IMG/VR virus record: IMGVR_UViG_3300027736_000049
Location: 1-60,106 of that record
DNA from: a virus
Lineage: Duplodnaviria; Caudoviricetes
Length of the DNA stretch: 60,106 nt
Direction: 5' to 3' (one strand)
The translations under genes were made by a program, and so were the position numbers. Shown here piece after piece: positions 8,706-50,547 of this stretch (position 1 is the stretch's first letter; each line of letters starts with the position of its first letter). Under the pieces are notes generated by a model. The model was given only the letters and a program-made list of their open reading frames with translations. It searched no databases and was not told the origin of the DNA.

Positions 8706-9263
8706 ATGCCCCTATCGCGCGGAAAATCTCAAAAGACCATCAGCCACAACATCTCTGAGATGATTGGGTCCGGTCATCCTCGCGATCAGGCCATAGCAGC
8801 GGCCCTTAGCACCGCCCGCAAGACCAAGGCGTTTGGTGGCCATACACCCGCTTTTATGCAGAAATCTGCCCAGCCCGGCGCTGAAGTGATCCACGAGGGC
8901 CCAATCCATAGCCCCGTGTCTGGCCGCACAGATCATCTGCCCATGCACGTCGCCTCTGGCTCCTACGTCATCCCCGCCGACATCATCAGCGCGATGGGCG
9001 AGGGAAACACTATGTCCGGCTTCAAGCAGATGAAGCAGATCCTGAGTGGAGCCAAGGCCATCCCCAAAGCGTCCGGTGGCCCTGTTCGCGCCGTTCCTAT
9101 TGTGGCGGCGGGTGGTGAGTATGTCGTAACCCCCCATGAAGTGATGTGGGCGGGAGACGGCGATATGGATGCGGGACATGAAGTTTTTGATGGGTTTGTG
9201 ACGGGGATGCGCGCCAAAACCATTAAAACTCTGAAGGGGTTACCGCCCCCGAAGAAAAACTGA
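8706..9263 (+). CDS. Virion-associated protein with AxGG motifs and duplicated G(S/E)YV(I/V) motif
   Basis: GAGG RBS; KAFGG, KASGG, GRTDHLPMHVASGSYVIPADII and AAGGEYVVTP. Confidence 0.7.
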   Translation: MPLSRGKSQKTISHNISEMIGSGHPRDQAIAAALSTARKTKAFGGHTPAFMQKSAQPGAEVIHEGPIHSPVSGRTDHLPMHVASGSYVIPADIISAMGEGNTMSGFKQMKQILSGAKAIPKASGGPVRAVPIVAAGGEYVVTPHEVMWAGDGDMDAGHEVFDGFVTGMRAKTIKTLKGLPPPKKN

Positions 9264-9274
9264 GAGGGGAAAAT

Positions 9275-9766
9275 ATGAGCGACGAACTGAAAGTAAGAGT
9301 TGGAACACCGGACGACATCCATGAAGCCATGGAATTGTCCATGATGGCCTGCGCCGAAAACGGCTTCAGAAACCCAGATAAAGTCAAGCTTCTCAATGAG
9401 TTATGGCAGGCCCTTAACTTAAATTACGGCCTCATTGGCATCATCGGAAAAGAGGGTGGTCCTATGGAAGGGGCCATCCTTTTGCGTATCGGCCCAATGT
9501 GGTACAGTCATGATATGGTGTTGGAGGAAAAGGCAATTTTCATCCACCCTGATCATCGCAAGCACAGAGATGGTCGTGCGCGTAAATTGGTCGAGTTTGC
9601 CAAACAGACGGCAGATGAACTTGGTATTCCGCTTCTCATTGGAGTGCTTTCCAATGAGCGGACGGCGGGTAAGATCAGGCTATACGAGCGGCAATTAGGC
9701 AAGCCAACCGGGGCGTTTTTTCTGTATGGCGCCCAGACTGGCGAATATCCTATGACGGAGCATTAA
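9275..9766 (+). CDS. GNAT-fold acyltransferase-like protein
   Basis: IFIHPDHRKHRDGRARKLVEFAKQTA (GNAT motif A-like) and RLYER; position before ejection proteins. Confidence 0.65.
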   Translation: MSDELKVRVGTPDDIHEAMELSMMACAENGFRNPDKVKLLNELWQALNLNYGLIGIIGKEGGPMEGAILLRIGPMWYSHDMVLEEKAIFIHPDHRKHRDGRARKLVEFAKQTADELGIPLLIGVLSNERTAGKIRLYERQLGKPTGAFFLYGAQTGEYPMTEH

Positions 9767-9769
9767 GAG

Positions 9770-12700
9770 ATGAGTAATCCCCTTCTCGCTTTTCGCCGGG
9801 ACGACGACTTTAGCTTTGGCGGCGCGGCTAGGGGATTGCCTCCGGGCGTCCATTTAGAGTTCTATGGTGGTGGCGGCAAGGGGGGCTCTAGCACTCAGAC
9901 CGTCTCCATTCCTCCCGAGGTTTTGGCGCGATACAATGCCGTCAACGCCCGTGCAGAGAATGTGGCGCAGACGCCGTTTACGCCATATTCGACCGATCCT
10001 AACGCCTTTGTGGCCGGCCTTACCTCATCTCAACAGGCTGGAATTGGCAATATTAATGCCCAACAGGGGGCCGCAAATCAGGCCGTTGGCATAGGCCAAG
10101 GTCTTCAGCAGCAAGGGATTGACACTGCCCGAACTGGCCAAGGTCAGGCCAACGCTATCAATCAAACTGCTTTGCAAGGCATTAGTCAGGCACAGCAGCA
10201 GGGAACCGCTTATAATCAGGCCGCGGGCAAGAACATTGGCAACGCTATGTCTTCGGCTGCGCCCTACATGCAGCAAATGGCTGGCCTTACGCAGGCTGGT
10301 CTTGGGCAGGGCCAGCAATACCTTGGCGGGGCTACCGATCTGACACAACAGGCCATTCAGACCGGCCAACAGTACGCCAACAAGGCGGAACCCTATTACA
10401 CCGGCGCTTTGCAGGCTGGACAGCCCCTGAACCAACAGGCGCAGCGATACATGCAGGCCGGGACGCAGGCGGTAAACCCGAATGCGCTGGATTACGGTCA
10501 GTACATGAACCCGTACATGAGCGACGTGGTTCAGGCCCAGCAAGCCCTTCAGGCGCAGGAAAACGCTCAACAGCGTTCCGCCTTGCAGGGTAAGGCTATT
10601 CAGTCAGGTGCGTTTGGCGGCGACCGTGCCGGTATTGAGCAGGCCAATTTGGCTCGCCAACAGAGCCTTGCCAATCAGGCGACAATGGCCAATCTGCTTC
10701 AGTCTGGCTATGGGCAGGCTCAGGCCGCTGCACAGCAGCAGCAGGGCGTGGGTCTTGGCGCTGCTCAAGCTAATCGTGCGGCCCAGCAGGCTGCGGCCCA
10801 ACAAGCTGCGGCGCTTGGTCAACAACAATACGCCCAGCAGCTTGGCGTGGGAACTGGCCTTTCGGCTCTTGGTCAGCAGCAGTATGGACAGGCCCTTGGC
10901 ACTGGCTCGCAGCTCGGCACATTGGGCCAGCAGGGCTACACACAGAACCTTGGCGCTGGTGCGCAACTGGGTCAGGTCGGCCAGAACCTGTATGCACAAA
11001 ATATCGGTCAGGGTCAGGCCATTCAGGGTCTTGGCAATCAACAGTTTACGCAGGGGCTTCAGGGCTCTCAGGCGGCGTCTGGCATTGGCCAGAGCATCTT
11101 TGGCAATGCCGCCCAGACCGCTGGCATTCAGCAGGCTGGCGGCATGAACACCGCCAACCTTGGCCTCCAGAACCAAGCCGCACAGATTGCCGCCGCGCAG
11201 GCTCAGATGGCCGCTGGTCAGCAGCAGCAACAGACTGAACAGGCTGGCAAGACGGCGCTCTACAACCAATTCTTGCAACAGCAGGGCTACCCCTTCCAGA
11301 TCGCGCAGTTCCTTGCCAATATCGCGATGGGCACTGGCGCTCTGTCAGGCTCCACAACAAGCGCCGCCCGTACAGGGCAGCGCGGTGGTCGCATGGGCGA
11401 TGGTTATGCTTCTGGCGGGCTTGTGCCTGATAGTCAGGGCGGCGCGGTTTATGAGCCGGGCCTGTACGAGCGCGGCGGCTATGCCAGTGGCGGCAAGATG
11501 GGTCCTGATTTTGCGCTTGGCAGTGATAATGATGGTAATGAGGTTTGGACTAATCTCGCTACAGGCCGAGCCGTTGACGCAATCAATGACCCTGAATTTT
11601 TGGCGTGGCGCGCAAATGGCAATGTGCCCGTGGGGAATAAAAAGACGGCACCAACAACAAGTTCTGCTGGGTTGGCTGGAACATCTAATTATGACCAAAT
11701 TGTCCGTAACGCCTATGGGCAAATTGGCCGTAAGGATTTTGGCACTGCCGCCAGTAACATTGATGAGGGCGGCTACAACTATTGGATGAACCAACTGAAC
11801 TCAGGAACCATCACGCCTGATCAGTTTAATGCACAATTTACGAAAGAGGGGCAGGCGTATAATGCCGCCAATCCGAAATCTGATGTAGCAAAACTGACGC
11901 AGCCAGTCATGCAATCCAATGCAGATTTTCGTAGTGTCGGCGGGCTTGATCCAGACATTGCGGACGCATTTAAAGAGGCTGTTGGCAGAGATATTGATGG
12001 GGCTTCCGCCCGCAAATATCAGGCTATGAAGGATGCTGGTTTGAGCTTGGATCAAATCACATACAACATCGCAAATTCCCAGCCAGCGAAATTGAAAGCG
12101 GGCGATGTTGACGCCCTCAAGGGCCCATCGCTTGCTTACGATGCCTCCAAGTTCTCCCAGCCAGTTGCCCCTGTTCGCAATCAGTATGGCGCGTTTTCTG
12201 CGGGTGATTTTACAGGTTTAACGCCTCAACAATCGCAGGTCATTAACGCCTATTCGGCGGTTGGTCGGACCCCCGGCAGTCGATATGCTCCTTCGCAAAA
12301 TGAGTTGAACTATTGGACAGGCCAAATGTCTTCTGGCGCAATTGCGCCGGGAGAATTTGGTAATACGTTTAATCAAGCTGTTCAAAGCAATATGGCGCAA
12401 AATCCCAATGCGCCTCTTACGCAGTACATTAATAATTACATGAACCAGCCCATTGGTGGCTATGGTCAGCCGCAGGGTGGTGGTTATAGCGGTGGCCTTG
12501 GTGGTTATGGCCAGCCGCAGGGCTATGGCAATATGTCTGCCATACAGGGTGGATATGGTGGTTATGGCGGCGGGTTTGGGGGTTATGGCGGCGGCATGAT
12601 GGGCGGTTACGGCCAGCCCAGCAACTACGGTATGCCTAACTTTGGCTCATCGCCGCAGTATGGCGGCGCTCCTGACTATGCCGGTGCTATGCAGTATGGT

Positions 12701-15700
12701 GGGATGAGTGCGCAGTATGGGATGCCGCAGGGCTATGGGATGCAGCAGCAGGGCTACGGGATGCCGCAGCAGCAACAGTATCAGCAGCAACAGTATCAGC
12801 AACAGCCGCAATACCAGCAATATCAGCCGCCTATGCAGTCCACGCCTGCCATCCCGCAGGGCGTTTTGGATCGTTATAACGCGACAAATGGTCAACAGGC
12901 CGCTCCCACCGCCACCGGCAAGGGCGCTGCACCTGCTATGGGCACTGACGGTTTGGCTGGCTCCACAACAACCGCGCAGACTACTGCCGCCCCAACGGCA
13001 ACTGGCAAGGGCGCAAGTTCGCCGTCAACTGCCACCGGCAAGGGAGCGTCTGGCATGGCGGGCGGTGGCCGTGCGGGCTTTGCTGACGGTGGTCGGGCGG
13101 GGTATGCCGCTGGCGGCGGAGACCCATCCAGCATACTTCGTGGCCTTATCAGCCAGTACGATCCCGGCGATCCGCAGGGTTTGGTGGCTAGGCAAGCGGC
13201 TATGTTTGCTGGCGCTCCGGGCGCTGGCGCTGCTGGCTATGTGCCGCCCACGCAAAGCATGGCAGGCCAGCGTCAGATGCTTCAGCCGCAGGCAAGCATT
13301 CTTCCGCAACAGCAGAGCGGCATTTCGCAAGCGGCTGCGACCGGCACTAGCATCGCCAGTTTGGGTGAGGCTGGTGGTAAGCTCTATAGCAAAATGACCA
13401 GCAAGCCCGGTACGGACACGGCTGCTGACACTTTTAAAGAAGGTTTTGGCAACTTTGCTGATAAAACCAAAAACTTCTTTGGGTTTGGCGAAGCGGCAGG
13501 TGGTCGCATAGGCTACGCCTTGCAGGGCGGTATCCCTTATTCGCAAGGCGCTGACCCGAACAAAGACCCTTCGCGCGTGGGCTACATGGGGATGCTGGAC
13601 TTGCAGCAGCCCATCGACCCGACGCAAGCGTTCAACGCCCAGAAGGCCGGGCAGATGCCCAGCGTTCATCAGGCGTCTAACCCGCTCGTGCAGGGCGCTC
13701 AGGCTGTGAATGCGCTCAACAGTGGGGCCAAGACCCTCAAAAGTGCTGGCGAGTTCCTTGGAATTGGCAAGACAGCCCCAGATATGGGCTCCTTGGCGAA
13801 TGCGCCACTGCCAATGGCTCGCCCTGAAGGTCTTGGCGCTGCCGCCCCTGAGATGGGCTCTCTATCAAACGCGCCGCTTCCGATGGCGCGTCCCGAAGGT
13901 CTTGGGGCACTTGTGTCTGAAAGCGCCCCCGCAGCCGCTGCGCCTGCCCTTGAGGCCGGTGCTGTTCAGGCTGCCGCCTCGCCCGTCCTTGGCGAAATGA
14001 TTGGCGCTGGCGCTGCCCCTGCGGTGGCTGAAGCTGCTTCACTTACAGCTCTCGGTGAGGGTGCTGCCGCCATGGGCGCGGAGATGTTTGCGGGCTTGGC
14101 GGCTGGCGCTGGCAGTGCGTTGGAATTTCTCCCGTTCCTTTTCCTGAAGACAGGCGGTCGCGTCGGCAAGGCTGGCGGCGGTTCCCTTGTGGACCCCAGC
14201 AATCCCCAAGATCAGGCGATGGCGAAATCTTTCGACAATCTGCTCCAGCGTTACGACAACAACCCGCTCCTCGCCGCTGCGGCGATGGACGTTGGCACCA
14301 AGGTCGTTGACGCCGCCATCCAGAAGGCCGAGCAGACTGGAGGCGACATCACTGACTTCCTGCCCCGCAGGACGCAGGAGTACATGTTTGCCCTGTCCAA
14401 GGCCGCTATGGGCGCGCATGACGCCATGAGCCGCCCTGCCCGTGCGGCGGGTGGGCGGACGGGGTATGCGTTGCCGGGCTTCGTGAATGACGAGCCTACT
14501 GGCCTTGCACCTGCGCCGTCTGACGCTATGACCATGGGCGATGTGGCTGGTGGGCTCTCGCCTGAGCCTACTGTGCAAGTTGCTGAACTGAAGAACCCGG
14601 ACATTCTTCGCGCATTGCGTGGGTCTGAAGGGGCCAATGGCAACCCGGAAGCCAAGAACCCCAACTCAACGGCTGGTGGTTTGTACCAATACCTTGACAG
14701 CACTTGGCAAAAACAAGCTCCCCTTGCCGGTGTGGACATTAAACAATACCCCACGGCTAGGTCTGCCCCTGCGGACATCCAGCACCAAGTGGCCGACGCC
14801 AATGTCAGCAGCATCTTGGAGCAGAACAAGGGTAATGTGCAGGCCGTCCCTCATCTTTGGTATTCGGGCAACCCCGAAGGCAAACTGAGCCCCGAAGGCC
14901 TTGCGGCTAACAAAGGGTTCACGCAAGAGCAATATAATCAACGGTTCTTCAAAAAACTTGAGCCCGGTGCGCCTGAAGGCAAGCCTGTTCAAGTTGCTGG
15001 CCTCAACCCTTCCAAGACTGACGCTGGCTCGCTCAGTGACATTGGAAAGACCATTTCCGACTCCGTTCCTACCAGCAGCAGCTTCTGGGTTCCGCTGATT
15101 GCGGGCCTTGGCACCATGTTGGCCTCTGACAAGTATCGCTTCTCGCAGCGCATTGGTGAGGGCCTTGTGGGCGGTGCGGCTGCGTTTGGTAAGCAGCAAG
15201 AGTTCGGGTTGAGTAAGGAAAAACTGGCGCAGGAAGAGGCGTTGCGTAAACAAGGATTTGGGCTCCAACAGCAACAGATTGGTTTGACTGAGCGTGAAGT
15301 TGCGCTCAAGGAGGCTGAGAGCAAACGTAGGATTGAAGCAGCCAAAGCTGCCGCTGCGGCATTAAGTGGAAATGTTGCGCCGGTGCAACCTTCTGCCCCT
15401 GTTCCGACAGCCAAAACTACGGTTGCCCCTCCCTCTGTTGGCGGTGCACAGCCAAGCAATCCCAATAATGCAGCGCCAGCAATTCCTCCGGCTGGCGGTC
15501 TTGTGCCTCCTCCGGTTGAAGATAAGGATAAAACCCCAGCGGCTCCTATCCCGGCTCCTAACAGCAAATTCTGGGAAAATGTGGACCCTCAGTCCAATCC
15601 GCATAACCTATTAGCTTTGGCGGATAGGTTCGATCAAGCTGCCGTTGCGTCTGCTGAAGATCCATCATCAATGGCTGCCTATCGCGCTTCTGCTCAACAG

Positions 15701-16894
15701 TACCGGGCGCAAGCAAGTGCTATTCGCCTGAGCGGCATAGTCACGATGAAGGATCAGTCAACAGCCTCAATGCCCGGCTTCAATGAAGCCAAGGCAGCGC
15801 AGGCTGCTGCGCTTAAGCAAGCGGAATTGAACGTTACAACTTCGCCAGAAGCCCGCGCTGCCGAAGTTGAAAAACAACGTCTTCTTGAAGAAGAGAAACA
15901 GCGTTATGCCCCCTTCGAAGACAATGAGGGTAATCAATGGCGTCGGGCAGCGCCAAGCGACACGCCAGTTCAAATGGCTGCGGCCCCCAACACCACTGCC
16001 GCTGCTGGTGAGCCGGTGAAGGCGTCTCTTGATCCAAAGACAGCGCGAGTTAATAATGTCATCCCGGCACCTCCTGTTGGTGGTGGTATCCCACAAGCTA
16101 TTCCCCCGCGCGAAGGTCTCGTTCTTGCGAAGTCGGCTGGTCTTTCGCCTGCCGCCAAAGCAAATGACCAAAAGTTTTCAGAAGAATTCCCCGGAAAATT
16201 GCATAATGCAATTGAAGGCGAAGAAGCCATGCAAACTGTGGCGCAGGCTTTCAAACTCTTTACTTCCAATGTTGTTGCCGAAAAACTTCAGGGATACGCG
16301 CTTTTGGCAAGGGCCATCGGAATGCCTGACAGTGTTGTGGAGGCTGTTGCAGGGGGCGACCCTGCGGCCATGCAGCGCGTTGATAAGGAAGCTGTACCTT
16401 CCGTTATTGGCATTCTGAAAGAAGGTGCAAGCCGGTTTGGGCAGCAAGAATTTATGGTTACGCAGAAAACTGCCGTTGCATCCAAAACGGCTGACCCCAA
16501 GGCAAATCATGCCCTTGTCGGCGAGTTGATGGGCAAGGCTCAGTGGAACAAACAATTCCTCACTGATTGGGATAAGGCCAAGGACGAGGGATGGCGTAGC
16601 CCGTCTGCGTTCTTTGCCTCATGGTCTCAGGCCAATCCGCTCAATACCTACATCCTCTCTGCTACCAAGCAGATTGGAAACTTCAGTGGGATGGATCTTC
16701 CCAAAGATCCAAATGCCTATGTGGAAGGGGCTATTTACGTTGCACCCGAAAGATTTGGTACTCCTGCACTAGAAAAATATTTTGGGTCTATCGGGGTGAA
16801 GCCGGGTCAATTGTTCAAGTACAATGGGCCCAATAATCTTCAACCTATAGCCAAAGAAGATTATTACACGGCGCATTTGACCGGGAGGCGATAA
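9770..16894 (+). CDS. Giant internal virion / DNA ejection protein with lytic transglycosylase-like domain
   Basis: 2374 aa; Gln/Ala/Gly-rich N-terminal region; SEGANGNPEAKNPNSTAGGLYQYLDSTW lysozyme-like motif near 14620-14710. Confidence 0.75.
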   Translation: MSNPLLAFRRDDDFSFGGAARGLPPGVHLEFYGGGGKGGSSTQTVSIPPEVLARYNAVNARAENVAQTPFTPYSTDPNAFVAGLTSSQQAGIGNINAQQGAANQAVGIGQGLQQQGIDTARTGQGQANAINQTALQGISQAQQQGTAYNQAAGKNIGNAMSSAAPYMQQMAGLTQAGLGQGQQYLGGATDLTQQAIQTGQQYANKAEPYYTGALQAGQPLNQQAQRYMQAGTQAVNPNALDYGQYMNPYMSDVVQAQQALQAQENAQQRSALQGKAIQSGAFGGDRAGIEQANLARQQSLANQATMANLLQSGYGQAQAAAQQQQGVGLGAAQANRAAQQAAAQQAAALGQQQYAQQLGVGTGLSALGQQQYGQALGTGSQLGTLGQQGYTQNLGAGAQLGQVGQNLYAQNIGQGQAIQGLGNQQFTQGLQGSQAASGIGQSIFGNAAQTAGIQQAGGMNTANLGLQNQAAQIAAAQAQMAAGQQQQQTEQAGKTALYNQFLQQQGYPFQIAQFLANIAMGTGALSGSTTSAARTGQRGGRMGDGYASGGLVPDSQGGAVYEPGLYERGGYASGGKMGPDFALGSDNDGNEVWTNLATGRAVDAINDPEFLAWRANGNVPVGNKKTAPTTSSAGLAGTSNYDQIVRNAYGQIGRKDFGTAASNIDEGGYNYWMNQLNSGTITPDQFNAQFTKEGQAYNAANPKSDVAKLTQPVMQSNADFRSVGGLDPDIADAFKEAVGRDIDGASARKYQAMKDAGLSLDQITYNIANSQPAKLKAGDVDALKGPSLAYDASKFSQPVAPVRNQYGAFSAGDFTGLTPQQSQVINAYSAVGRTPGSRYAPSQNELNYWTGQMSSGAIAPGEFGNTFNQAVQSNMAQNPNAPLTQYINNYMNQPIGGYGQPQGGGYSGGLGGYGQPQGYGNMSAIQGGYGGYGGGFGGYGGGMMGGYGQPSNYGMPNFGSSPQYGGAPDYAGAMQYGGMSAQYGMPQGYGMQQQGYGMPQQQQYQQQQYQQQPQYQQYQPPMQSTPAIPQGVLDRYNATNGQQAAPTATGKGAAPAMGTDGLAGSTTTAQTTAAPTATGKGASSPSTATGKGASGMAGGGRAGFADGGRAGYAAGGGDPSSILRGLISQYDPGDPQGLVARQAAMFAGAPGAGAAGYVPPTQSMAGQRQMLQPQASILPQQQSGISQAAATGTSIASLGEAGGKLYSKMTSKPGTDTAADTFKEGFGNFADKTKNFFGFGEAAGGRIGYALQGGIPYSQGADPNKDPSRVGYMGMLDLQQPIDPTQAFNAQKAGQMPSVHQASNPLVQGAQAVNALNSGAKTLKSAGEFLGIGKTAPDMGSLANAPLPMARPEGLGAAAPEMGSLSNAPLPMARPEGLGALVSESAPAAAAPALEAGAVQAAASPVLGEMIGAGAAPAVAEAASLTALGEGAAAMGAEMFAGLAAGAGSALEFLPFLFLKTGGRVGKAGGGSLVDPSNPQDQAMAKSFDNLLQRYDNNPLLAAAAMDVGTKVVDAAIQKAEQTGGDITDFLPRRTQEYMFALSKAAMGAHDAMSRPARAAGGRTGYALPGFVNDEPTGLAPAPSDAMTMGDVAGGLSPEPTVQVAELKNPDILRALRGSEGANGNPEAKNPNSTAGGLYQYLDSTWQKQAPLAGVDIKQYPTARSAPADIQHQVADANVSSILEQNKGNVQAVPHLWYSGNPEGKLSPEGLAANKGFTQEQYNQRFFKKLEPGAPEGKPVQVAGLNPSKTDAGSLSDIGKTISDSVPTSSSFWVPLIAGLGTMLASDKYRFSQRIGEGLVGGAAAFGKQQEFGLSKEKLAQEEALRKQGFGLQQQQIGLTEREVALKEAESKRRIEAAKAAAAALSGNVAPVQPSAPVPTAKTTVAPPSVGGAQPSNPNNAAPAIPPAGGLVPPPVEDKDKTPAAPIPAPNSKFWENVDPQSNPHNLLALADRFDQAAVASAEDPSSMAAYRASAQQYRAQASAIRLSGIVTMKDQSTASMPGFNEAKAAQAAALKQAELNVTTSPEARAAEVEKQRLLEEEKQRYAPFEDNEGNQWRRAAPSDTPVQMAAAPNTTAAAGEPVKASLDPKTARVNNVIPAPPVGGGIPQAIPPREGLVLAKSAGLSPAAKANDQKFSEEFPGKLHNAIEGEEAMQTVAQAFKLFTSNVVAEKLQGYALLARAIGMPDSVVEAVAGGDPAAMQRVDKEAVPSVIGILKEGASRFGQQEFMVTQKTAVASKTADPKANHALVGELMGKAQWNKQFLTDWDKAKDEGWRSPSAFFASWSQANPLNTYILSATKQIGNFSGMDLPKDPNAYVEGAIYVAPERFGTPALEKYFGSIGVKPGQLFKYNGPNNLQPIAKEDYYTAHLTGRR
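12902..13050 (+). repeat. Three copies of peptide repeat (P/S)TATGKGA within the giant protein
   Basis: APTATGKGA, APTATGKGA, PSTATGKGA in translation. Confidence 0.8.
13774..13910 (+). repeat. Tandem duplication of a 22-aa unit within the giant protein
   Basis: APDMGSLANAPLPMARPEGLGA followed by APEMGSLSNAPLPMARPEGLGA. Confidence 0.85.
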
Positions 16895-16895
16895 G

Positions 16896-19517
16896 ATGAC
16901 TTTTGAAGAAGCACTTGCTGCCGAATATGGCTCAAAACCAGAAGCGTCAGCGCCACAAGGTTCTGGGCAGCTCTATGCTCCGGCAACTTCTTTTGCTGAA
17001 GCTTTGGCTTCTCAAGAGGAGAATAAGCCAAGTGTGACTTCATTTGCGTCGGCTTTGCCAATTGGATTGAACCGTGGTGCGGCAAATATCATTGGAATGC
17101 CCATTGATGCCATCAACTGGACGTTAAAGCAGTCCCATGAATATCTTGGCACACCGGCCCCGTCAGAAACACCATTTGGCGGATCGGAGTCGATCAAAAA
17201 AGGAATGGGTATCATTGGCGCAAATCCTGATGCGCCTGAACACAAACCCCGTTCTATGCCCGAACACGTTATGCAGACGTTTGGAGAAGGTGCGGCGGGA
17301 GCATTGATGCCTGCTTTCGCCGCTAAAGCAATTCCTGAACAGCTTGCCACTCAATATCCCCGGATTGTTGAAGGTGCCAAAACGATATTTGGTAAGCCAA
17401 CTGCGACAACTGCAATCGTTGGCGGAACGGGCGCACTTGGCGGAGAAGCAGCTTCATCTCTTGTCCCTGACAAATGGAAGGGTATGGCTGGATTAGTCGG
17501 TGGGTTGGCAGGAGGTGCCGCTGGTGCACTTGGCACAACTGCCGCAAAGACACTTCCCGTCATCGCCCGCGCTCATTTTGCTCCTGAAGAATTATCTGCT
17601 CGCGTGGCTGGGCAGGGTCTTCGTGAAGCAGTAGGGGCCCCTAAGATTGAAACTTCCATATCTGAGCCAACATTGCAGGGCCTTGACCTTGCATCGGCTC
17701 AGGCGTCCCAAAACCGTGGTCTTGAAACTCTTAGTCGCACTTTAGAGACTAGCAAGGGGCTTACTCCCGCCGAAGACATAAAAGTTCAAATTGGCGCGCA
17801 GTCCGCAAAAAATCAGAAGGTTGTTTCTACTGCCGCCGAAGATGCTGCGCGTGAACTTGGGCAAGATGTTAAAAGTGGCTACAACCTGCCCCCTACAGAC
17901 GCAAAAGCTTCGGCAAGTGTTCGCGCTCGCTTAATTCTTGACAATCTTGAAGGCGCTGCTGACGAGAATGTTAAAAAGTTGTGGGAAAATCCCGACTTGA
18001 AAAAAGCAACAATGTACAAAAACAAATCCATTGATCCAGTCAATGAATTTGTCTCGGATTTGTCCATATCTCGTCGAAAGCAACTTGACCCGTCAATCCT
18101 TAATACGATTGATGAAATATCAGCACTTCAAACCCGTGATGTACCCTTAAAAGAATTGCAAGACTTGCGTTCAACCGCACTGGCAAAAGGTCGCGCCGCA
18201 TATAGAAGCGGAGATGACGCTATTGGGGGCGTTCATTACGCCCTTGCAGACAAACTTAAGAATGTCATTGGGGATGGTCAAAACATCGTCTTTGGCGACA
18301 AATCAGGCGCTGCGCGGCAAGCTTGGAGTGATGCTGTAGCCGAAACGGCCAAATATCATAAAACCTTTAACGAAGGGTTTATGAAATCCCTCAATCAAAA
18401 TGCCGACGCAACTACAAGAAAAGTGGCTATTGACGATACGTTCAAGCGTATGTTGGCCGGTGGAAACGCCAATCAAAACATCGCGCAATTTCAAAACGCA
18501 ACGAAAGGCGCGATCAACGGCCATCTCGCCGACTATCTCGTTGGAGATTTGACAACCGACGGTGTAAAGATCGTCTCGCCAAAAGACGTTGACAATTGGA
18601 TGGCAAAAAGGGGGAGCACCGTTTCTCTTGTCCCCGGCTTGCGAGATCGTATTCAAAGCATCCGCGACATGAGCCTTTCCCAGAAAGTTTCTGAGGGGCT
18701 TTCCGCGGTGACGCAAGACCCAGACAAATTGTCGGCGTTTATGTCAAAGAACAAAGCCGACATTGCTACAGTCACACAAAACAATCCGCAGTTACAGTCC
18801 TATATGGAGATGCTGGAAAATTCGGCAAATCGGATCAAGCCGATTGATCCAGATAAGGCAACGAACCTCGCAACTGTGAAGAAACTGGCCAATGGGAATG
18901 TCAGTGACATTTTGTATGGTATTGGCACAGGAAAGATTATCCGTACTGCCGCCTCTGATCTTCTGATCCGTTCAATCGGAGAAAAGATGGGTGTTGATCT
19001 TGGCGCTTCTCTTGAAGCTGTTGGCGCACTGGCTGGCGGTATTGGTTCGCAACATCTTCCATTTATCGGAAAAGGTGTTGAGGGCGCTACCGAGTGGGCA
19101 TTGACCGGAAATGTCCGTCAAAAAGCAATTGAGCTTTTGCATCAGGCGCAAACCGATCCAGAGTTAATGAAAATCTTGATGGCCAAGCCAGACCCGCGCG
19201 CGGTTGAAAGCATTTTCAGCGAACAGAATCGGGCAAATGTTGTGCGCGGTTCAATGGCCGGGCGGGAAGCTGGTGATAAACATAAAAACGAGCCACTTCC
19301 TCTCACTATCCCCGGCCCTGCCAATCGTTTTGCCGGTGGTCGCATAGGCCGCGCCTCTGGCGGCAAGGTCGCCCACAACATTCAGCCGCTTGTGAGCCGC
19401 CTCATGGGGCTTGCGGATCAGGCCAAGAAGTCTACAGACAGTAGCACCAAGCCGTTGCTGGACGCCCCTGACGCTAGTATCGTCAAGGCTCTCCGTGTCG
19501 CCAATCAAGCCATCTAG
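16896..19517 (+). CDS. Internal virion / DNA ejection protein
   Basis: 873 aa, helical with Gly/Ala hydrophobic patches; ends FAGGRIGRASGGKV...ALRVANQAI. Confidence 0.65.
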   Translation: MTFEEALAAEYGSKPEASAPQGSGQLYAPATSFAEALASQEENKPSVTSFASALPIGLNRGAANIIGMPIDAINWTLKQSHEYLGTPAPSETPFGGSESIKKGMGIIGANPDAPEHKPRSMPEHVMQTFGEGAAGALMPAFAAKAIPEQLATQYPRIVEGAKTIFGKPTATTAIVGGTGALGGEAASSLVPDKWKGMAGLVGGLAGGAAGALGTTAAKTLPVIARAHFAPEELSARVAGQGLREAVGAPKIETSISEPTLQGLDLASAQASQNRGLETLSRTLETSKGLTPAEDIKVQIGAQSAKNQKVVSTAAEDAARELGQDVKSGYNLPPTDAKASASVRARLILDNLEGAADENVKKLWENPDLKKATMYKNKSIDPVNEFVSDLSISRRKQLDPSILNTIDEISALQTRDVPLKELQDLRSTALAKGRAAYRSGDDAIGGVHYALADKLKNVIGDGQNIVFGDKSGAARQAWSDAVAETAKYHKTFNEGFMKSLNQNADATTRKVAIDDTFKRMLAGGNANQNIAQFQNATKGAINGHLADYLVGDLTTDGVKIVSPKDVDNWMAKRGSTVSLVPGLRDRIQSIRDMSLSQKVSEGLSAVTQDPDKLSAFMSKNKADIATVTQNNPQLQSYMEMLENSANRIKPIDPDKATNLATVKKLANGNVSDILYGIGTGKIIRTAASDLLIRSIGEKMGVDLGASLEAVGALAGGIGSQHLPFIGKGVEGATEWALTGNVRQKAIELLHQAQTDPELMKILMAKPDPRAVESIFSEQNRANVVRGSMAGREAGDKHKNEPLPLTIPGPANRFAGGRIGRASGGKVAHNIQPLVSRLMGLADQAKKSTDSSTKPLLDAPDASIVKALRVANQAI

Positions 19518-39775: not shown

Positions 39776-42208
39776 ATGCCGTTGACCCCCGGTCTGTCGC
39801 CATCCATTCGTCAGCCCCTTTCCGATGAGGACCCCGCCGTTCAGATCGAGATGATCGAGGATGGCGATATGCCCGTCATGGATCAGCGCGGCAATGTGCT
39901 GGAGATCGAGCACGGCGACGGGTCGATCTCAATCAGCCTTGACGGCAGGCCGCTTGATGAGGCCGGAGAGGCCGAGCCGAAGGACTGGTTTGATAACCTC
40001 GTTGACGACATTGACGAGCTTGAGTTGTATCGGATCAGTGACGAGCTGTTGCGCGGCGTTCAGGACGACATCGACAGCCGCAAGGAATGGATCGAGAACA
40101 GGGCCACCGGCATCAAGCTGATGGGGCTCAAGCTGGAGATCCCCGGTTTGCAGGGTGCGTCTGATGGCGCTCCGGTGGAGGGCATGTCCAAGGTGCGCCA
40201 CCCGCTGCTGCTTGAAGCTGTGCTGCGGTTTCAAGCCAATGCGCGGTCTGAGCTGCTGCCCACCGATGGGCCGGTGAAGATCCGCAACGACGACAACAAT
40301 GCCGATTTCCAAGAGGACCAGCTTGCCAATGCGCTGGAGACGGATCTCAACCACTTCCTGACGACGACCGCGACTGAGTACTATCCCGATACGGATCGGA
40401 TGCTGCTCATGCTGGGCTTTGGTGGCACGTCCTTCAAGAAAGTCTATTATTGCCCCCTGCGCAATCGCCCCGTCTCCGAGACGGTAGACGCTGACGACCT
40501 GATCGTGAACAACGCCGCGACGGATCTGCGTAACGCCAAGCGCATCACGCATCGCTCTTATATGCGCCCGAGCATTGTGAAGCGGCTCCAGATCCTTGGT
40601 GTCTACAAGGACATTGACCTGTCCACCGCCCGCCTGCCGACGCTCGATAGCGTCCAGAAGGAAAAGAACAGCCAGCAGGGCATCGCCCTCTCGGCCTCTG
40701 GCAACCCGGACGACCGCGACCGCGAGATTTACGAAATCTATTGCGAGCTGGATGTTAAGGGCTTCGAACACAAGTACAAGGGCAAGGTCAGCGGTCTTGA
40801 GATCCCTTATCGCGTGACCATCGACACTTCGTCCAAGCAGGTCTTGAGCATCGTCCGCAACTACGATGAGGACGATCTGGATCTGCCAGAGGCGCGCATC
40901 AACTTCGTCAAATACTCGTTCGTTCCGGGGCTGGGCTTCTATGACATCGGGCTCTTACACATTCTTGGCAATACGACCAATGCTATCACTGCTGCGTGGC
41001 GTGAGCTTCTTGACGCTGGCATGTATTCCAACTTCCCCGGCTTCCTCATGGCCGACACTGGCGCACGTCAGAACACGAATATCTTTCGCGTTCCTCCGGG
41101 CGGAGGTGCTCTTGTTAAAACTGGCGGTATGCCGCTGAACCAAGCCATCATGCCGCTTCCGTACAAGGAGCCGTCTGGCGCTCTCATGTCGCTCGTTCAG
41201 AACATGGCCGAAACGGGGATGAGGATTGGCGGCACAAGCGAGCAGCAGGTTGGCGAAGGCCGGGCCGACGCGCCTGTGGGCACGACGCTGGCCATGATTG
41301 ACCAAGCCACCAAGATGATGAACGCCGTCCACAAGCGGATGCACGCCGCGCAGGCGGAGGAGTTCAGGCTACTGGTGCGGACGTTCAAGGACAACCCGGA
41401 AAGCTTCTGGCAACGCAACAAACAGCCGTCCTATCAGTGGGATCAGGATACGTTCCTGAAGGCCATTGACGACTACGAGTTGACGCCGCAGGCCGATCCG
41501 AACACGGCGAGCCACACCCAGCGCATCATGAAGGTCGTTGGTCTCATGCAGCTGATGGGGCAGGCTCCTGAACTTTTTGACAAGAAAGCGGTCATCACGG
41601 ACGCCATGCAGGTCATGGGCTGGAACAACCCTGCGCAGTTCTTTACCAAGACCCCGCAGGGCGGCATTGAAGGGATGCTGGCCAATCCGATGGTCTTGAA
41701 GGGCCTTGGCGACTTGCTGATCAAGAAACAGGACAGCGACACCAAGAAGCTGGTGGGCGAGGCGCAGGCCGCCGAGCTTCACGCCAAGGCGCAGCAGATC
41801 CCCCAAGAGGGTGCGCAGGCTGGTGGCCTCAATCCGATGGACGCTCAGATCAAGCAGGCGCAGCTACAGGCTGATTTGCAGCTCAAGGGCGCGGACTTGC
41901 AACTGAAGCAGGCGCAGATCGCCGAGGTTCAGGCCAAGGGGCAGGCGGATCGCACGGCTGATCCCATGAAGATGGCGGATCTCCAACTTCGCCAGCGCGA
42001 GCTGGACCAGAAGCAGGAAGACGCCGAGCTTGATGCGATCAACCGCAAGCGCGACCGTGAAAGCCGCGAAAGGTTGGCGGCTGTGAAGCTGGCGGAGGAG
42101 ATGGCGGCTAATCCGCAGGGGCTGGGGGTCGTAGATCAGCTCCTTGACCCCGGCATGATCCAGCGGCTTGAGAGCAATGAGCCCAAGCTGAAGAGCGGGA
42201 GCGATTGA
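39776..42208 (+). CDS. Portal protein (P22-like, long C-terminal coiled coil)
   Basis: 810 aa after terminase; HPLLLEAVLRFQA, APVGTTLAMI; Gln-rich helical tail. Confidence 0.85.
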   Translation: MPLTPGLSPSIRQPLSDEDPAVQIEMIEDGDMPVMDQRGNVLEIEHGDGSISISLDGRPLDEAGEAEPKDWFDNLVDDIDELELYRISDELLRGVQDDIDSRKEWIENRATGIKLMGLKLEIPGLQGASDGAPVEGMSKVRHPLLLEAVLRFQANARSELLPTDGPVKIRNDDNNADFQEDQLANALETDLNHFLTTTATEYYPDTDRMLLMLGFGGTSFKKVYYCPLRNRPVSETVDADDLIVNNAATDLRNAKRITHRSYMRPSIVKRLQILGVYKDIDLSTARLPTLDSVQKEKNSQQGIALSASGNPDDRDREIYEIYCELDVKGFEHKYKGKVSGLEIPYRVTIDTSSKQVLSIVRNYDEDDLDLPEARINFVKYSFVPGLGFYDIGLLHILGNTTNAITAAWRELLDAGMYSNFPGFLMADTGARQNTNIFRVPPGGGALVKTGGMPLNQAIMPLPYKEPSGALMSLVQNMAETGMRIGGTSEQQVGEGRADAPVGTTLAMIDQATKMMNAVHKRMHAAQAEEFRLLVRTFKDNPESFWQRNKQPSYQWDQDTFLKAIDDYELTPQADPNTASHTQRIMKVVGLMQLMGQAPELFDKKAVITDAMQVMGWNNPAQFFTKTPQGGIEGMLANPMVLKGLGDLLIKKQDSDTKKLVGEAQAAELHAKAQQIPQEGAQAGGLNPMDAQIKQAQLQADLQLKGADLQLKQAQIAEVQAKGQADRTADPMKMADLQLRQRELDQKQEDAELDAINRKRDRESRERLAAVKLAEEMAANPQGLGVVDQLLDPGMIQRLESNEPKLKSGSD

Positions 42209-46124: not shown

Positions 46125-46137
46125 AGGGGTATCTACA

Positions 46138-46509
46138 ATGGCAATGGTGATGCAGCATAACGAAGATCCGAAAGAAGAAATCTGGAAGGCGGTTGGTAAT
46201 CTTGCCGACTTCCAGTTGTTTGGGAATGAGGTTCTGGTGGCGATTTATATTCGGCCACAGAAAACTTCGTCAGGAATTTTCCTTACCGACAATTATCGTG
46301 ACGAAGACAAGTGGCAAGGCAAGATTGGCCTTGTCCTAAAGAAGGGAGGCACCTCGTTGGTTGAGTTATCCGACACGGTTAATGTCAATGAATGGGTGTT
46401 GTTCCGTCCCTCAGACGGCTGGGGGCTGACTGTTAACGGCGTGATGTGCCGCCTCTTGGATGATCGCGTCATCCGGGGCCGTCCCGCAAAACCCGACACC
46501 ATTTACTAG
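46138..46509 (+). CDS. groES: Co-chaperonin GroES-like protein
   Basis: NEVLV...QKTSSGIFL (mobile loop)...GLVLKKG...RLLDDRVIRG. Confidence 0.75.
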   Translation: MAMVMQHNEDPKEEIWKAVGNLADFQLFGNEVLVAIYIRPQKTSSGIFLTDNYRDEDKWQGKIGLVLKKGGTSLVELSDTVNVNEWVLFRPSDGWGLTVNGVMCRLLDDRVIRGRPAKPDTIY

Positions 46510-46519: not shown

Positions 46520-47410
46520 ATGGCAGAAGCCAATGAAGAACAGATTGAGATCCATCTTGATGAGCCTGAAAAGGCCAAAGAGGCGGAAATTGAAGTTGTA
46601 AAGGCTGAAGATGTTCCGGTTAAGACGAAGCCGGAGATCCCGCCTGAAGTGCGAGAGCTGAAATTCCAGCTTGAGCAGGAAAAACTGGCCCGTGCGGAGG
46701 CTGAAAAGCGCGCCCGCATGGCGTCAGAGCGTGAGTATGTGGCTAAAAATGAGGTTACAGACACCAATCTGAGCCTGATTAACAACGCCATTAGCTCCAC
46801 GCAGCAAGAAACGGGGTATCTGAAGGCCGAATACCGTGAGGCAATGGCGACTGGCGACTATGCCAGGACGGCTGAAATCCAGCAGCGCATGTCGGACAAC
46901 GCCGCGCGCCTTTTGCAGCTTGAAAACGGCAAGGATGCCTTGGAAAGGCAGGGAAGACAGGTTGCTCCGCAGTATCAGCACCCTATGGACCCTGTTGAGG
47001 CCCTTGCCGCTCAGTTAAGCCCCCGTTCTGCCAATTGGGTACGCGCTAATCCGCAGTTTGCCACTGACCCGCGCCTCTTTCAGAAGATGATTGCGGCGCA
47101 TAATCTGGCTTTGGCGGACGGTTTGCAGCCAGACACGGACGATTATTTCGCCACGGTTGAGGAAACCTTGCGCATTCGTCGTCCCGAGCCGACCTATGAA
47201 GATCCGATGGCCCAATCAGCCTCGGTAACGCAAAGACGTTCCGCCCCACCTGCTGCACCCGTGTCTAGGGGTGGCAATGGGACGGGCAGCAACCCGAACC
47301 GGGTCACATTGAGCGCCGCAGAGCGTGAAATGGCTCAGATGATGGGCATGACCAATCAGGAATACGCGCAAAACAAGCTTTCCCTTCAGAAAGAAGGCAA
47401 GCTCAACTAG
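46520..47410 (+). CDS. Capsid scaffolding protein
   Basis: Acidic coiled coil; C-terminal VTLSAAEREMAQMMGMTNQEYA; upstream of capsid gene. Confidence 0.7.
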   Translation: MAEANEEQIEIHLDEPEKAKEAEIEVVKAEDVPVKTKPEIPPEVRELKFQLEQEKLARAEAEKRARMASEREYVAKNEVTDTNLSLINNAISSTQQETGYLKAEYREAMATGDYARTAEIQQRMSDNAARLLQLENGKDALERQGRQVAPQYQHPMDPVEALAAQLSPRSANWVRANPQFATDPRLFQKMIAAHNLALADGLQPDTDDYFATVEETLRIRRPEPTYEDPMAQSASVTQRRSAPPAAPVSRGGNGTGSNPNRVTLSAAEREMAQMMGMTNQEYAQNKLSLQKEGKLN

Positions 47411-48762: not shown

Positions 48763-49674
48763 ATGGCTGTTAATCTCTCAGCGATTAAAGACCTTCTCCT
48801 CCCCGGTCTCCGTGGAATTGAAGGCAAGTACGAGCAGATCCCGTCGCAGTACGACAAGATCTTCACGAAGCACGACTCCAAGATGGCGCTGGAGCGTACC
48901 GCTGAAATGCGTTACCTCGGCCTCGCCCAGCTCAAGACCGAAGGCGGCCAGACCTCCTTCGACAACTCGGCTGGCGAACGCTACGTCTACAATCAGGAGC
49001 ACACCGAGATCGCTCTCGGCTACGCCATCACCCGCAAGGCGATTGATGACAACCTGTACAAGACACAGTTCCATCCGTCGAACCTCGGTCTGATCGAGTC
49101 CTTTCAGCAGACCAAGGAAATCTACGGCGCGAACGTGCTGAACACCGCCACGACCTACAATGCGGCCATCGGCGGTGACGGCAAGGCTCTGTGCGCTACT
49201 GACCACCCCATCGACGGTGGCACGGTTGCGAACACCCCCACTGTGCAGGTTGACCTCAATGAGTCCACCCTGCTCAACGGCATGATCGCTATCCGTACAA
49301 ACTTCAAGGATCAGGCTGGTCTGAAGGTGTTCGCTCGCGGTCGCAAGCTCGTGGTTCCCCCGCAGCTTGAGCCTGTCGCTATCCGTCTGACCAAGACTGA
49401 GCTGCGTCCCGGCACTGCGGACAACGACGTGAACGCAATCCTTACAACGGCAGGTGGCCTTCCCGAGGGCTACATGGTCAACGACTTCTTGACCTCCGCC
49501 TCTGCTTGGTTCTTGCTGACCAACATTGACGGCCTGTCGTACATGGAGCGCGTTTCCTTCGAAACCGACATGCAAGTCGATTTTGTGACCGATAACCTTC
49601 TCGTTAAGGGTTATGAGCGTTACAGCTTCGCCTACTACAACTTCCGTGCGATCTTCGGAAGTTTCCCGACCTAA
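48763..49674 (+). CDS. Major capsid protein (Mu gpT-like, HK97 fold)
   Basis: LLPGL, KTEGG, AITRKAIDDNLY, GDGKALCATDHP, LVVPPQL, ERYSF; strong codon bias; AAGGAG RBS. Confidence 0.92.
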   Translation: MAVNLSAIKDLLLPGLRGIEGKYEQIPSQYDKIFTKHDSKMALERTAEMRYLGLAQLKTEGGQTSFDNSAGERYVYNQEHTEIALGYAITRKAIDDNLYKTQFHPSNLGLIESFQQTKEIYGANVLNTATTYNAAIGGDGKALCATDHPIDGGTVANTPTVQVDLNESTLLNGMIAIRTNFKDQAGLKVFARGRKLVVPPQLEPVAIRLTKTELRPGTADNDVNAILTTAGGLPEGYMVNDFLTSASAWFLLTNIDGLSYMERVSFETDMQVDFVTDNLLVKGYERYSFAYYNFRAIFGSFPT

Positions 49675-49709: not shown

Positions 49710-49780
49710 CTAGGGTTTACAGTCGCGTTGACCGACCTAGCGGACGCTGCACACGACAACGCGACAACTTGTGCAGGAGG
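49710..49780 (+). ncRNA. Pseudoknotted RNA element, candidate Mu-gpT-DE motif
   Basis: Three perfect crossing helices downstream of a gpT-like capsid gene; family identity not verified. Confidence 0.55.
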
Positions 49781-49785
49781 CCATC

Positions 49786-50238
49786 ATGGCTATTACTACT
49801 TTCACCGGCCCTATCAAGGCGGGCAATGTTCTGAACACGACCGGCACCACAGCCGGTACGGTTAAGAATGTTGGCTTCGTTGCTATGGCCCAGACCGCAT
49901 CTATCACGCAGGCGGGTTCCGCCACTGCGTATAAGACCGCCATCTGCATCCCGGCCTACAGCCACATCTTGAACATTCAGTTCTTGACAACGGTTGCTTG
50001 GAACGGCGCTGCGGCAACGGTTAGCATCGGCACTAGCGCCACTTCGACGGAGCTTGTTGTTGGGCAAAGCCTTGGCACCATCGGGCAAGCTTCGGCTGGT
50101 CCCGGCGCTGATGCAACTCGCACGGCCCTTTGGACAAACACCGGCTCGACGGACGTGATCATTTACGTTCTGTCTGCCAACACTGGTGCGGGCGTTGGCG
50201 ACATTGTTGTTCGCTATCTCCAAGCCGAAAACGCTTAA
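49786..50238 (+). CDS. Virion structural protein
   Basis: MAITTFTGPIKAG start; beta-rich; GGAGG RBS. Confidence 0.7.
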   Translation: MAITTFTGPIKAGNVLNTTGTTAGTVKNVGFVAMAQTASITQAGSATAYKTAICIPAYSHILNIQFLTTVAWNGAAATVSIGTSATSTELVVGQSLGTIGQASAGPGADATRTALWTNTGSTDVIIYVLSANTGAGVGDIVVRYLQAENA

Positions 50239-50259
50239 TCTCAGCCATAGGAGGCTACT

Positions 50260-50547
50260 ATGAAGGGTCGTAAGAAGCGTGAAGAGGGTGGTCGTAATCT
50301 GGCTGCCGAGGATGTCAACAAGAAGAACATGTCCTACACCTATGAGAATAAAGTTGGCCCTGCCGCTGAAGAGCGTAAGGCTGGCGGCAAGGTGAAGGGT
50401 GACAAGGCTATGTCCAATGCCGGTCGCAAGCCCCGCAAGTCCGGTGGCCGCGCTGGTTCGGATCAGAGCCCGTTCTCGTCTGCTCTCAAGGGCACGGCTC
50501 CCAAGGGCCGTTCGCTCGACAAGATTACGATGGGAACAAACATCTAA
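50260..50547 (+). CDS. Small basic KxGG-motif protein
   Basis: EEGGR, RKAGGKV, RKPRKSGGR; GGAGG RBS. Confidence 0.75.
   Translation: MKGRKKREEGGRNLAAEDVNKKNMSYTYENKVGPAAEERKAGGKVKGDKAMSNAGRKPRKSGGRAGSDQSPFSSALKGTAPKGRSLDKITMGTNI

Follow-up and report, generated by a model that had tools for sequence, protein, structure and literature searches.

Why do six proteins of one bacteriophage genome carry the same glycine-pair motif, and what could the motif be doing next to a short terminal helix? The genome is IMG/VR record IMGVR_UViG_3300027736_000049, one whole virus record of 60,106 bases that is rated 100% complete (this entire stretch is called the window below); to judge from its gene set, which is that of a short-tailed phage, it is podovirus-like. 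An earlier note on this DNA had proposed that an xxGG motif and an alanine-rich helix form a shared sorting or processing signal in the six proteins, which are named here by the first base of their genes, apart from the giant one. The answer reached here is that the motif is real, conserved and confined to these families, where it lies at protein ends and domain junctions, and that the helical hairpin heading the 8706 protein is a portable module. As to function, the best explanation, which we hold tentatively and at somewhat less than even confidence, is that helix and motif would be a standard tag or connector that recruits packaged proteins to the assembling head or holds them there; a prohead-targeting role of the tag is plausible. 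The six proteins and their motif copies are the following.

8706..9263, plus strand: the 8706 protein, 185 amino acids
8706-8825 (residues 1-40): its N-terminal two-helix hairpin, DUF6496-like
8826-8840 (residues 41-45): its first motif copy, followed by a disordered, hypervariable linker
8883-9260 (residues 60-185): its conserved core, an internal duplication of a β-hairpin and two helices
9066-9080 (residues 121-125): its second motif copy
9770..16894, plus strand: the giant internal-virion-type protein, 2374 amino acids, with six motif clusters
11384-11419 (residues 539-550): giant, cluster 1
11480-11503 (residues 571-578): giant, cluster 2
13064-13117 (residues 1099-1116): giant, cluster 3
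13499-13531 (residues 1244-1254): giant, cluster 4
14153-14182 (residues 1462-1471): giant, cluster 5
14441-14464 (residues 1558-1565): giant, cluster 6
16896..19517, plus strand: the 16896 protein, 873 amino acids
19317-19514 (last 66 residues): its C-terminal module
19335-19364 (residues 814-823): its doubled motif, followed by a helix-loop-helix up to the last residue
42208..44817, plus strand: the 42208 protein, 869 amino acids, its gene following the portal gene directly; member of a 'polyvalent' family in which added domains vary
42208-42288 (residues 1-27): its N-terminal helix and two motif copies
44731-44814 (residues 842-869): one motif copy and its C-terminal helix
44829..45806, plus strand: the 44829 protein, 325 amino acids, basic (isoelectric point, pI, 10.3), Gly/Lys/Pro-rich, with five [RK]-x-G-G-[RK] copies
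50260..50547, plus strand: the 50260 protein, 95 amino acids, basic (pI 10.4), downstream of the capsid gene, with three motif copies

All the peptide strings quoted in the earlier note are present in the open reading frames (ORFs) at 8706, 9770, 16896, 42208, 44829 and 50260. But do they recur beyond what the glycine content would produce? In the loose form that the note had relied on, they do not: [AKSR]xGG is not above 2000 within-protein shuffles in four of the six proteins (giant, 16 vs 11.9, p=0.14; 16896, p=0.47; 44829, p=0.07; 50260, p=0.19) and is weakly enriched only in 8706 (p=0.044) and 42208 (p=0.017). The GG dipeptide, too, occurs near its glycine-content expectation (51 vs 41.5 in the giant, 10 vs 7.9 in 16896). 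What does stand is the doubled form, GGRxG..., with six copies of G-G-R-x-G in the giant where 0.17 are expected. Other narrow patterns are [YFRK]-A-x-G-G (6 vs 0.86 in the giant, 2 vs 0.04 in 8706) and [RK]-x-G-G-[RK] (5 vs 0.31 in 44829, 2 vs 0.12 in 50260). Could chance, a compositional artefact or a repeated DNA element be behind these numbers? The loose pattern is not enriched, as just said, and the narrow ones were all defined after the sequences had been viewed, which speaks for such an origin. However, once simple tracts of Gly/Tyr/Gln and of Pro had been masked, an unbiased count of every four-of-five-letter pattern across the six proteins returned GGR.G as the top non-trivial pattern (8 vs 0.23 expected, p 2e-10, in three of the six proteins), followed by R.GYA (5 vs 0.07, p 1e-8) and YA.GG (5 vs 0.18), and this result survives correction for the ~6.5e5 possible patterns. 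The pattern.A.GG occurs 20 times against 7.8 expected and is present in five of the six. The synonymous codons of the motif glycines are mixed (GGC 34, GGT 26, GGG 7), so the copies are not a DNA repeat. Together with the family-level enrichment over flat controls and the matrix matches given below, this refutes chance for practical purposes, and the probability we leave it is negligible.

Is the motif kept in relatives? The conservation among homologues that the earlier proposal called for is there: the GG pairs are invariant in alignments of 63, 18, 9 and 9 sequences, while their surroundings drift and the adjacent linkers vary. Counted on non-redundant ORFs from related IMG/VR loci, the enrichment is 5- to 45-fold in five families. 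[YF]AxGG is found 77 times against 4.8 expected in 26 homologues of the giant and 36 times against 0.8 in 10 homologues of 42208; [RK]AxGG is found 98 times against 2.4 in 63 homologues of 8706 and 11 times against 2.3 in 19 homologues of 16896; and the 44829 family, with 55 sequences, holds 320 motif copies against 20.8 expected, 3-8 per protein. The controls show no enrichment: 2 copies vs 4.6 expected in the 67 sequences of a large tail protein family, 11 vs 8.1 in 410 unclassified ORFs lying on these same contigs, 0 vs 0.1 in the portal family and, for [YF]AxGG, 0 vs 0.5 in the acetyltransferase family. Relatives are numerous for some of the proteins, with at least 597 of 8706 and at least 274 of 44829 in IMG/VR, and 11 of 42208. 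The motif also extends beyond the window's immediate group, as pelagiphage HTVC027P, the nearest cultured phage bearing it, has one A-x-G-G-R-[IV]-G-Y copy in each of gp41 and gp42, the large proteins encoded just before its portal gene.

Aligned in this way, the shared unit is about 11 residues long, G-R-x-G-[Y/F/R/K]-[A/K]-x-G-G-x-[V/A/I], often doubled, and it is aromatic in the giant and 42208 families and basic in 16896, 44829 and 50260. Positions that had no part in selecting the instances agree across families, namely Arg at -8, Gly at -6 and a small hydrophobic residue two after GG; the Arg eight residues before the GG end has frequencies of 0.37, 0.74, 0.51 and 0.41 in four of the five families. 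When a matrix was trained on copies from the giant's family alone, the three best of the 69 other window ORFs were 42208 (21.4), 50260 (16.8) and 16896 (16.4), and all three scores exceed the best of each of 20 shuffles (mean 11.3, maximum 16.0). Might the motif nevertheless be a helix cap and flexible hinge, of use for storage or threading, which recurs through richness in Gly and Ala and has no recogniser? Its copies do lie in low-confidence segments of the structural models, between helices and domains, the GG dipeptide itself is at background level, and the proteins are glycine-rich (9-17%). A hinge, however, has no need of particular residues before the GG (Arg at -8, Gly at -6, an aromatic or basic one at -5, Ala or Lys at -4) common to four or five families, nor of GG pairs that stay invariant over 63 sequences. 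Besides, the other Gly-rich ORFs of this genome (56, 57078, 58604 and the tail fibre at 53453) have no G-G-R-x-G each and no [RK]-x-G-G-[RK], with one GGR in 58604. We regard the hinge as improbable.

Two further points of the earlier description are borne out only in part. The six proteins had been called otherwise unrelated, which is not fully so: 44829 and 50260 share a 20-residue stretch with 13 identities (E-value, E, 1e-4), and the profile of the 16896 C-terminus also matches 50260 (E 2.5e-5). The motifs of the giant had been placed at composition boundaries, and here the composition jumps at the six clusters (0.201, 0.144, 0.168, 0.177, 0.169 and 0.093) lean weakly that way when set against random centres (median 0.117, 75th percentile 0.162, 90th percentile 0.195).

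Where does the motif lie within the proteins? Copies follow N-terminal helices, precede C-terminal helices and stand on both sides of inserted domains. The helices reported beside terminal GG copies are indeed there, at the N-terminus of 8706, at both ends of 42208 and at the C-terminus of 16896. The 42208 family gains and loses whole domains at motif copies, so that the copies lie between differing domains. In the closest GenBank phage record, the uncultured MW202675.1 (portal 67% identical, gene order equal), a protein of 740 amino acids annotated as an M15 peptidase has the motif between each pair of domains and one more copy near its C-terminus; a further domain of it looks acetyltransferase-like by eye only. 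Two neighbouring large ORFs of a related locus (L086) share an identical 13-residue leader that ends in the motif. A stand-alone DUF4214 protein (L087) begins with a helix and the motif and closes with two helix-motif units in tandem, its chain stopping two residues past the last GG. All three of the longer 8706 homologues inspected carry an extra domain in the variable linker, with motif copies on both sides, and one of the inserted domains is an ART-PolyVal ADP-ribosyltransferase (E 1e-8, above cutoff). In another locus (L082) a second helix-motif copy follows the inserted domain, and between the two copies no more than 19 of 51 DNA bases agree in register, or 33 of 66 with the most favourable offset; the copy is thus kept at the protein level, and the idea that helix-motif copies are DNA-level recombination scars was rejected on the same figures.

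The genes themselves are found in two blocks, one made of 8706, an acetyltransferase gene, the giant and 16896, the other of 42208 and 44829 after the portal gene, with 50260 just beyond the capsid gene, and they occupy the positions of internal or ejected virion proteins. Homologues of the giant align over the first ~530 residues only, and 24 of the 25 listed carry 1-6 motif copies or clusters. Residues 584-900 match DUF4214 above cutoff, and residues 1573-1800 give a weak Transglycosylase-like match (E 0.005, 18 bits vs a cutoff of 27); the MW202675.1 homologue was annotated 'internal virion protein D' by its depositors. A tblastn search with the giant's N-domain, aimed at a cultured relative with a virion proteome, gave just one uncultured record. 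As a separate observation, a low-complexity tract rich in Gly, Tyr, Gln and Met occupies 12452-12889 of the giant gene (residues ~895-1040; Gly makes up 37% and Tyr 14% of residues 901-1000). It is reminiscent of the prion-like, phase-separating regions that RNA-binding proteins of eukaryotes have, and for a phage internal protein this is unusual.

In 16896 it is the end that is conserved: 17 homologues keep an identity of 40-58% over just their last ~60-70 residues, and in most of them the body is no longer recognisable. A profile of this C-terminal module found 1544 clusters at E<=1e-3 among 1.8 billion representatives, and the module ends no more than three residues from the C-terminus in 150 of 150 of the matches listed. 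For 42208, the G845 and G846 before the C-terminal helix are invariant in a nine-sequence alignment, and an AlphaFold2 model of low confidence (mean predicted local distance difference test score, pLDDT, 53) has a helix at 2-20, a motif coil, the body, a coil at 842-851 and a helix at 852-866. The 44829 family conserves both termini, including an N-terminal helix that the earlier note had not listed, and in 50260 all three GG pairs are invariant in nine sequences that are 44-84% identical. Pfam and PHROGs have no family for 16896, 44829, 50260, 47421 or 48160.

What about the helix of 8706? In the 63-sequence alignment of this protein G44 and G45 are invariant, the residue before GG varies freely, and the linker varies in length and sequence. 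The AlphaFold2 model (mean pLDDT 77) has helices at 9-21 and 26-39 and falls below a pLDDT of 50 at 42-58, which places the first GG in a disordered stretch between hairpin and core. Residues 1-42 match phrog_2423. The helix that adjoins the motif is the second one of the hairpin. A profile search with the hairpin found at least 7984 clusters of small stand-alone proteins of 26-86 amino acids. When four of these small relatives were compared with Pfam DUF6496 (PF20106), three gave E<1e-3, through the second helix; the scores were 26.9, 28.0 and 21.1 bits and one none, so that two of the four are above the cutoff of 24 bits. The window's own 8706 N-terminus has no match to the DUF6496 model at E<=10 and is linked to the small relatives through the profile search. 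Unlike in DUF6496 proteins, the Lys-rich tail is replaced in 8706 by the GG motif, the linker and a 125-residue core. The hairpin also makes up residues 1-37 of a protein of Acinetobacter phage Cato that is annotated 'prohead core protein protease' and encoded beside the capsid gene. Two proteins from a library of predicted viral structures have it at their N-ends, one annotated 'Prohead serine protease' and the other with a Nudix domain. By these annotations the hairpin is a portable N-terminal module of head-associated proteins. Two side observations concern the stand-alone forms: they have Lys-rich tails and are found on contigs of up to 78 kb, and one is an unannotated small ORF of Pseudomonas phage PA11 (L094 5001-5147), next to the largest virion genes.

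Could the hairpin and the motif be binding nucleic acid instead? On this explanation the motif would be an element of the RGG-box type that binds nucleic acid or neutralises its charge, the hairpin would be a small DNA-binding domain, and the proteins would ride on DNA. Such a role agrees well with 44829 and 50260, which are very basic, of low complexity and multi-copy, with the Lys-rich ends of the stand-alone hairpin proteins, with the conservation of the hairpin across phages whose head proteins are not known to be related, and with one phage record that annotates a small hairpin gene by its likeness to a DNA-binding domain complex. It agrees poorly with the aromatic motif of the giant (pI 5.7) and 42208 (pI 5.9), which has acidic or neutral surroundings, and the small proteins matched no DNA-binding family (best HTH_36, at E 0.43 for one of them). 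We give this explanation little credence.

The core of 8706 deserves a comment of its own. Residues 65-105 are almost invariant in the 63 sequences, a run of ~40 consecutive near-invariant residues with several His, Asp, Ser and Glu among them, which may point to an enzyme or a key assembly interface. Against PDB folds the 8706 model gave nothing below E 1.3, and a PDB sequence search with the 8706 profile, the C-part of the giant and 42208 came back empty. In Pfam and the protein atlas the core has no named match, the atlas giving only unnamed viral clusters; the nearest named atlas cluster is a crAss cargo protein domain (0.85, rated as a lead only). An M23/M15-type Gly-Gly peptidase and a JAMM enzyme were considered and dropped as claims, as the His/Asp spacing misfits their motifs and the fold differs; the idea lives on only in the bolder version given below.

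Is the GG pair a place where the proteins are cut? In a cleavage model, which takes up the earlier note's inference of GG as cleavage site and giant ORF as polyprotein, the pairs would be sites of a maturation protease, the helices removed propeptides, the giant and polyvalent ORFs polyproteins, and the basic proteins would be cut into DNA-condensing peptides. Proteases specific for GG include the adenovirus protease, pS273R of African swine fever virus (ASFV), the Ulp/C48 family and the C39 double-glycine leader peptidases. Their sites are like the present motif in having GG with N-terminal-side specificity, in occurring in basic core proteins and in having amphipathic-helix leaders. Here the GG is invariant, its specificity lies mostly on the N-terminal side, each interchangeable domain has copies on either side, short leaders at the N-terminus finish with the motif, and Pro is depleted 2.6-fold after GG (18 of 639 instances, or 2.8%, vs 7.4% background). 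The near-invariant 8706 core, rich in His, Asp, Ser and Glu and with no known fold, might be an unrecognised enzyme.

But what would do the cutting? The earlier note had recognised no canonical prohead protease, and a six-frame search of the complete genome bears this out, as none of eight families (Peptidase_S78, S77, ClpP, S49, C39, C48, DUF2213 and MPTase-PolyVal) gives a match at E<=1. For clan CE this covers Peptidase_C48, adenain (C5) and the ASFV family not having been searched, and for the C39 peptidase domain it covers the phage genome, host enzymes being outside the search. The T4 prohead protease takes the tag off; here, unlike in T4, the gp21-type enzyme (Peptidase_S77) was not found in the six frames. 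Unlike in HK97, Mu and lambda, S78, ClpP, S49 and DUF2213 have no match in the genome, and the capsid protein needs no processing, to judge from the following two genes.

46520..47410, plus strand: probable scaffolding protein, acidic and helical, its position kept in relatives
48763..49674, plus strand: major capsid protein, 303 amino acids, matching phrog_371 and Pfam Mu-like gpT

The gpT match is weak (24.4 bits, above the 20.1-bit cut-off), and the scaffold candidate has a weak match only, to the scaffold end of the Mu-like_Pro model (E 0.09). The capsid protein has no N-terminal scaffolding extension and the scaffold gene is separate, which is the arrangement of phages that assemble without a protease. 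The site itself also speaks against a simple adenovirus analogy. The adenovirus rule asks for Met, Ile or Leu four residues before the cut, whereas here, over 639 distinct instances, that place is taken by Ala at frequencies of 0.63-1.00, or by Lys at 0.79 in the 44829 family; the conserved unit is some 11 residues long; and the leader spacing differs from the bacteriocin consensus. Some copies are 2-4 residues from the C-terminus, where a cut would release nothing, and Pro follows GG in 15% of the 8706-family instances. Moreover, HTVC027P has the motif and is not among the 40 listed of the 53 phage records that match 8706. In favour of cutting, PMC5512222 proposes that polyvalent proteins which are packaged undergo processing, with P1 DdrB as its case, and names autoproteolysis by an MPTase domain; MPTase-PolyVal, frequent there and not obligatory, was not found in this genome. 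On the whole we consider cleavage possible and rather unlikely.

How would a tag or connector, the reading we prefer, work? The six proteins would be a set of packaged and ejected cargo, consisting of the giant with its transglycosylase region, its partners, a polyvalent effector encoded next to the portal gene and two basic disordered proteins. The motif lies in flexible segments, usually joined to a short amphipathic terminal helix, and its terminal copies would recruit the protein to the assembling head or hold it inside. Recruitment might depend on one common binding partner, or on numerous weak Arg/Tyr/Gly contacts to the basic 44829 and 50260, which would act as glue. Internal copies would be tags retained when separately tagged domains fused, and tags kept in this way would leave the motif flanking every interchangeable domain. 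Cleavage at GG may occur as well, and the connector would not need it; the readings are not mutually exclusive.

Several observations weigh against this proposal. Presence in the virion, a recruiting function and a partner for the tag are all things we infer from sequence, and the close GenBank phage record is itself an uncultured genome. The 8706 copies score poorly with the giant-derived matrix, neither being in the top 30. The comparisons do not establish homology among the helices of the different families: a profile-profile comparison of the 8706 N-module with the 16896 C-module aligned 15 columns (P 1e-3, probability 22%), and the 44829 N-helix profile hit 42208 at E 2.7. The invariant GG, the constraint on its N-terminal side and the Pro depletion after it also fit a protease site. 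Finally, the hairpin is 50-67% identical across podo-, myo- and siphoviruses, distant phages whose capsid and portal proteins are not known to be related in sequence, which argues that it binds something universal, for example DNA. A complex prediction of the 16896 C-module with the capsid protein, the scaffold and the 8706 core scored 0.24 against a mark of 0.32 and weighs neither way.

A bolder version would join the tag to cleavage. Effector domains would be plugged into lineage-wide cargo cassettes by way of the helix and a GGRxG[Y/F]AxGG connector, loaded into the head and then cut by an unrecognised GG-specific enzyme, with the 8706 core as candidate, releasing effectors and basic DNA-condensing peptides. 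The effectors may be the ADP-ribosyltransferase, the M15 peptidase, the transglycosylase and others, and the 8706 core is the best, and the only, candidate that we can name for the putative enzyme. If true, this would be a tailed-phage counterpart of adenovirus core maturation, and it strikes us as a long shot.

Are there precedents? Encapsulin cargo-loading peptides and the encapsulation peptides of bacterial microcompartments are short terminal peptides or amphipathic helices. Joined to their cargo by flexible and poorly conserved linkers, they bring enzymes of unrelated kinds into a protein shell. The shell of encapsulins has the capsid fold, and the shell-binding site is known in these systems. 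The sequence motifs differ from the present one. Among phages, T4 has a packaging signal at the N-terminus, and in P1 DarB the first 30 residues are enough to bring a reporter into the capsid (PMC9024508). The present system may resemble these in placing a short terminal tag on different proteins, with N-terminal helices in 8706, 42208 and 44829 and the 13-residue leader of the two L086 ORFs, the similarity of the helices between families not being significant; it is unlike them in coupling a helix to an ~11-residue Gly/Arg/aromatic motif at N-ends, at C-ends and internally, often several times per protein. Polyvalent proteins, as the main text of PMC5512222 (Iyer et al. 2017) presents them, have 2-15 effector domains, are encoded next to virion genes and are predicted to be packaged and injected. 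The variable added domains of the 42208 family next to the portal, the M15-annotated neighbour in MW202675.1, the ART-PolyVal domain in an 8706 homologue, and the DUF4214 and weak transglycosylase-like regions of the giant all resemble them. In that main text neither 'linker' nor 'glycine' occurs, and a standard junction motif is not described there. As for the internal virion proteins of the T7 type, the giant has the sub-threshold Transglycosylase-like match and the annotated homologue already mentioned.

Capsid-loading tags, polyprotein-like packaged effectors and GG-specific viral proteases are thus known kinds. No description of the motif, its pairing with a helix, its use at junctions or any role of a DUF6496-like hairpin was found in the literature searched (supplementary files lying outside its scope), nor any mention of DUF6496 or PF20106; the text of the PhiGT1 podovirus paper contains none of acetyltransferase, cleav-, protease or glycine. 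As a feature of the sequences the motif, a putative connector or tag of packaged polyvalent proteins, is real and apparently undescribed. Why would it matter? Outside T4 and P1 it is largely obscure how podoviruses choose the proteins that they pack and inject, and the signature is found on such putative cargo proteins throughout a large group of phages, uncultured ones from fresh water and the sea. Should it serve as a loading tag, the injected proteome would be predictable from sequence alone, the addition of new effector domains to packaged proteins would be explained, and foreign proteins could be loaded into capsids. Should the proteins be cut there too, a new maturation protease of phages would come to light. 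Either way, it would give a first functional lead for the DUF6496-like hairpin with its thousands of small relatives.

The remaining genes identified include an endolysin, a primase-helicase, a helicase, a Cas4-like exonuclease and a Sak4-like annealing protein. Those with positions are the following.

1545-3573: 2OG-Fe(II) oxygenase-like and β-1,4-glycosyltransferase-like (E 4e-97) genes, among virion and lysis genes
6153-8243: large virion protein
9275..9766, plus strand: GNAT-type acetyltransferase (phrog_1249, E 1e-6; weak Pfam acetyltransferase matches below cutoff)
37110-38840: large terminase
39776..42208, plus strand: portal protein (phrog_1216, E 6e-27)
46111-46509: GroES-like co-chaperonin (weak matches)
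51377-52069: adaptor
52066-52719: homing-endonuclease-like ORF, between adaptor and tail genes (phrog_314, E 4e-18)
52719-53453: ORF of 244 amino acids with an FCCH domain match, between the homing endonuclease and the tail fibre
53453-56170: collagen-like tail fibre

The acetyltransferase gene is kept between the 8706 and giant genes, and it has the same place in MW202675.1. More distant relatives of the phage are the pelagiphages HTVC027P and HTVC023P, the roseophages CRP-901 and CRP-902, and Caulobacter phages. The GroES-like gene sits in the head module, between 44829 and the scaffold gene, and is kept in relatives including HTVC027P. Whether the motif could mimic the GroEL-binding loop of GroES was considered and rejected, since the motif is in another register and the position after GG lacks a consistent hydrophobic residue. 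The capsid protein appears frozen, with 85-100% identity over 37 related contigs (loci L096-L170), and beside it on the same contigs the 44829 homologues are ~40-60% and the scaffold 32-100% identical, which is an unusual contrast.

A curious match is found further downstream. The ORF at 52719-53453 resembles the FCCH domain of ubiquitin-activating enzyme E1 (E 1e-8, 35.5 bits vs a Pfam cutoff of 29.5); this is probably a small β-barrel reused in a tail protein, curious as it is beside a GG motif. Very Gly-rich ORFs lie at both ends of the record, at 1-1165 (38% Gly), 57078-57671 (25%) and 58604-60105 (31%); the outermost are open at the record ends, and a gene may span the junction if the genome is circularly permuted.

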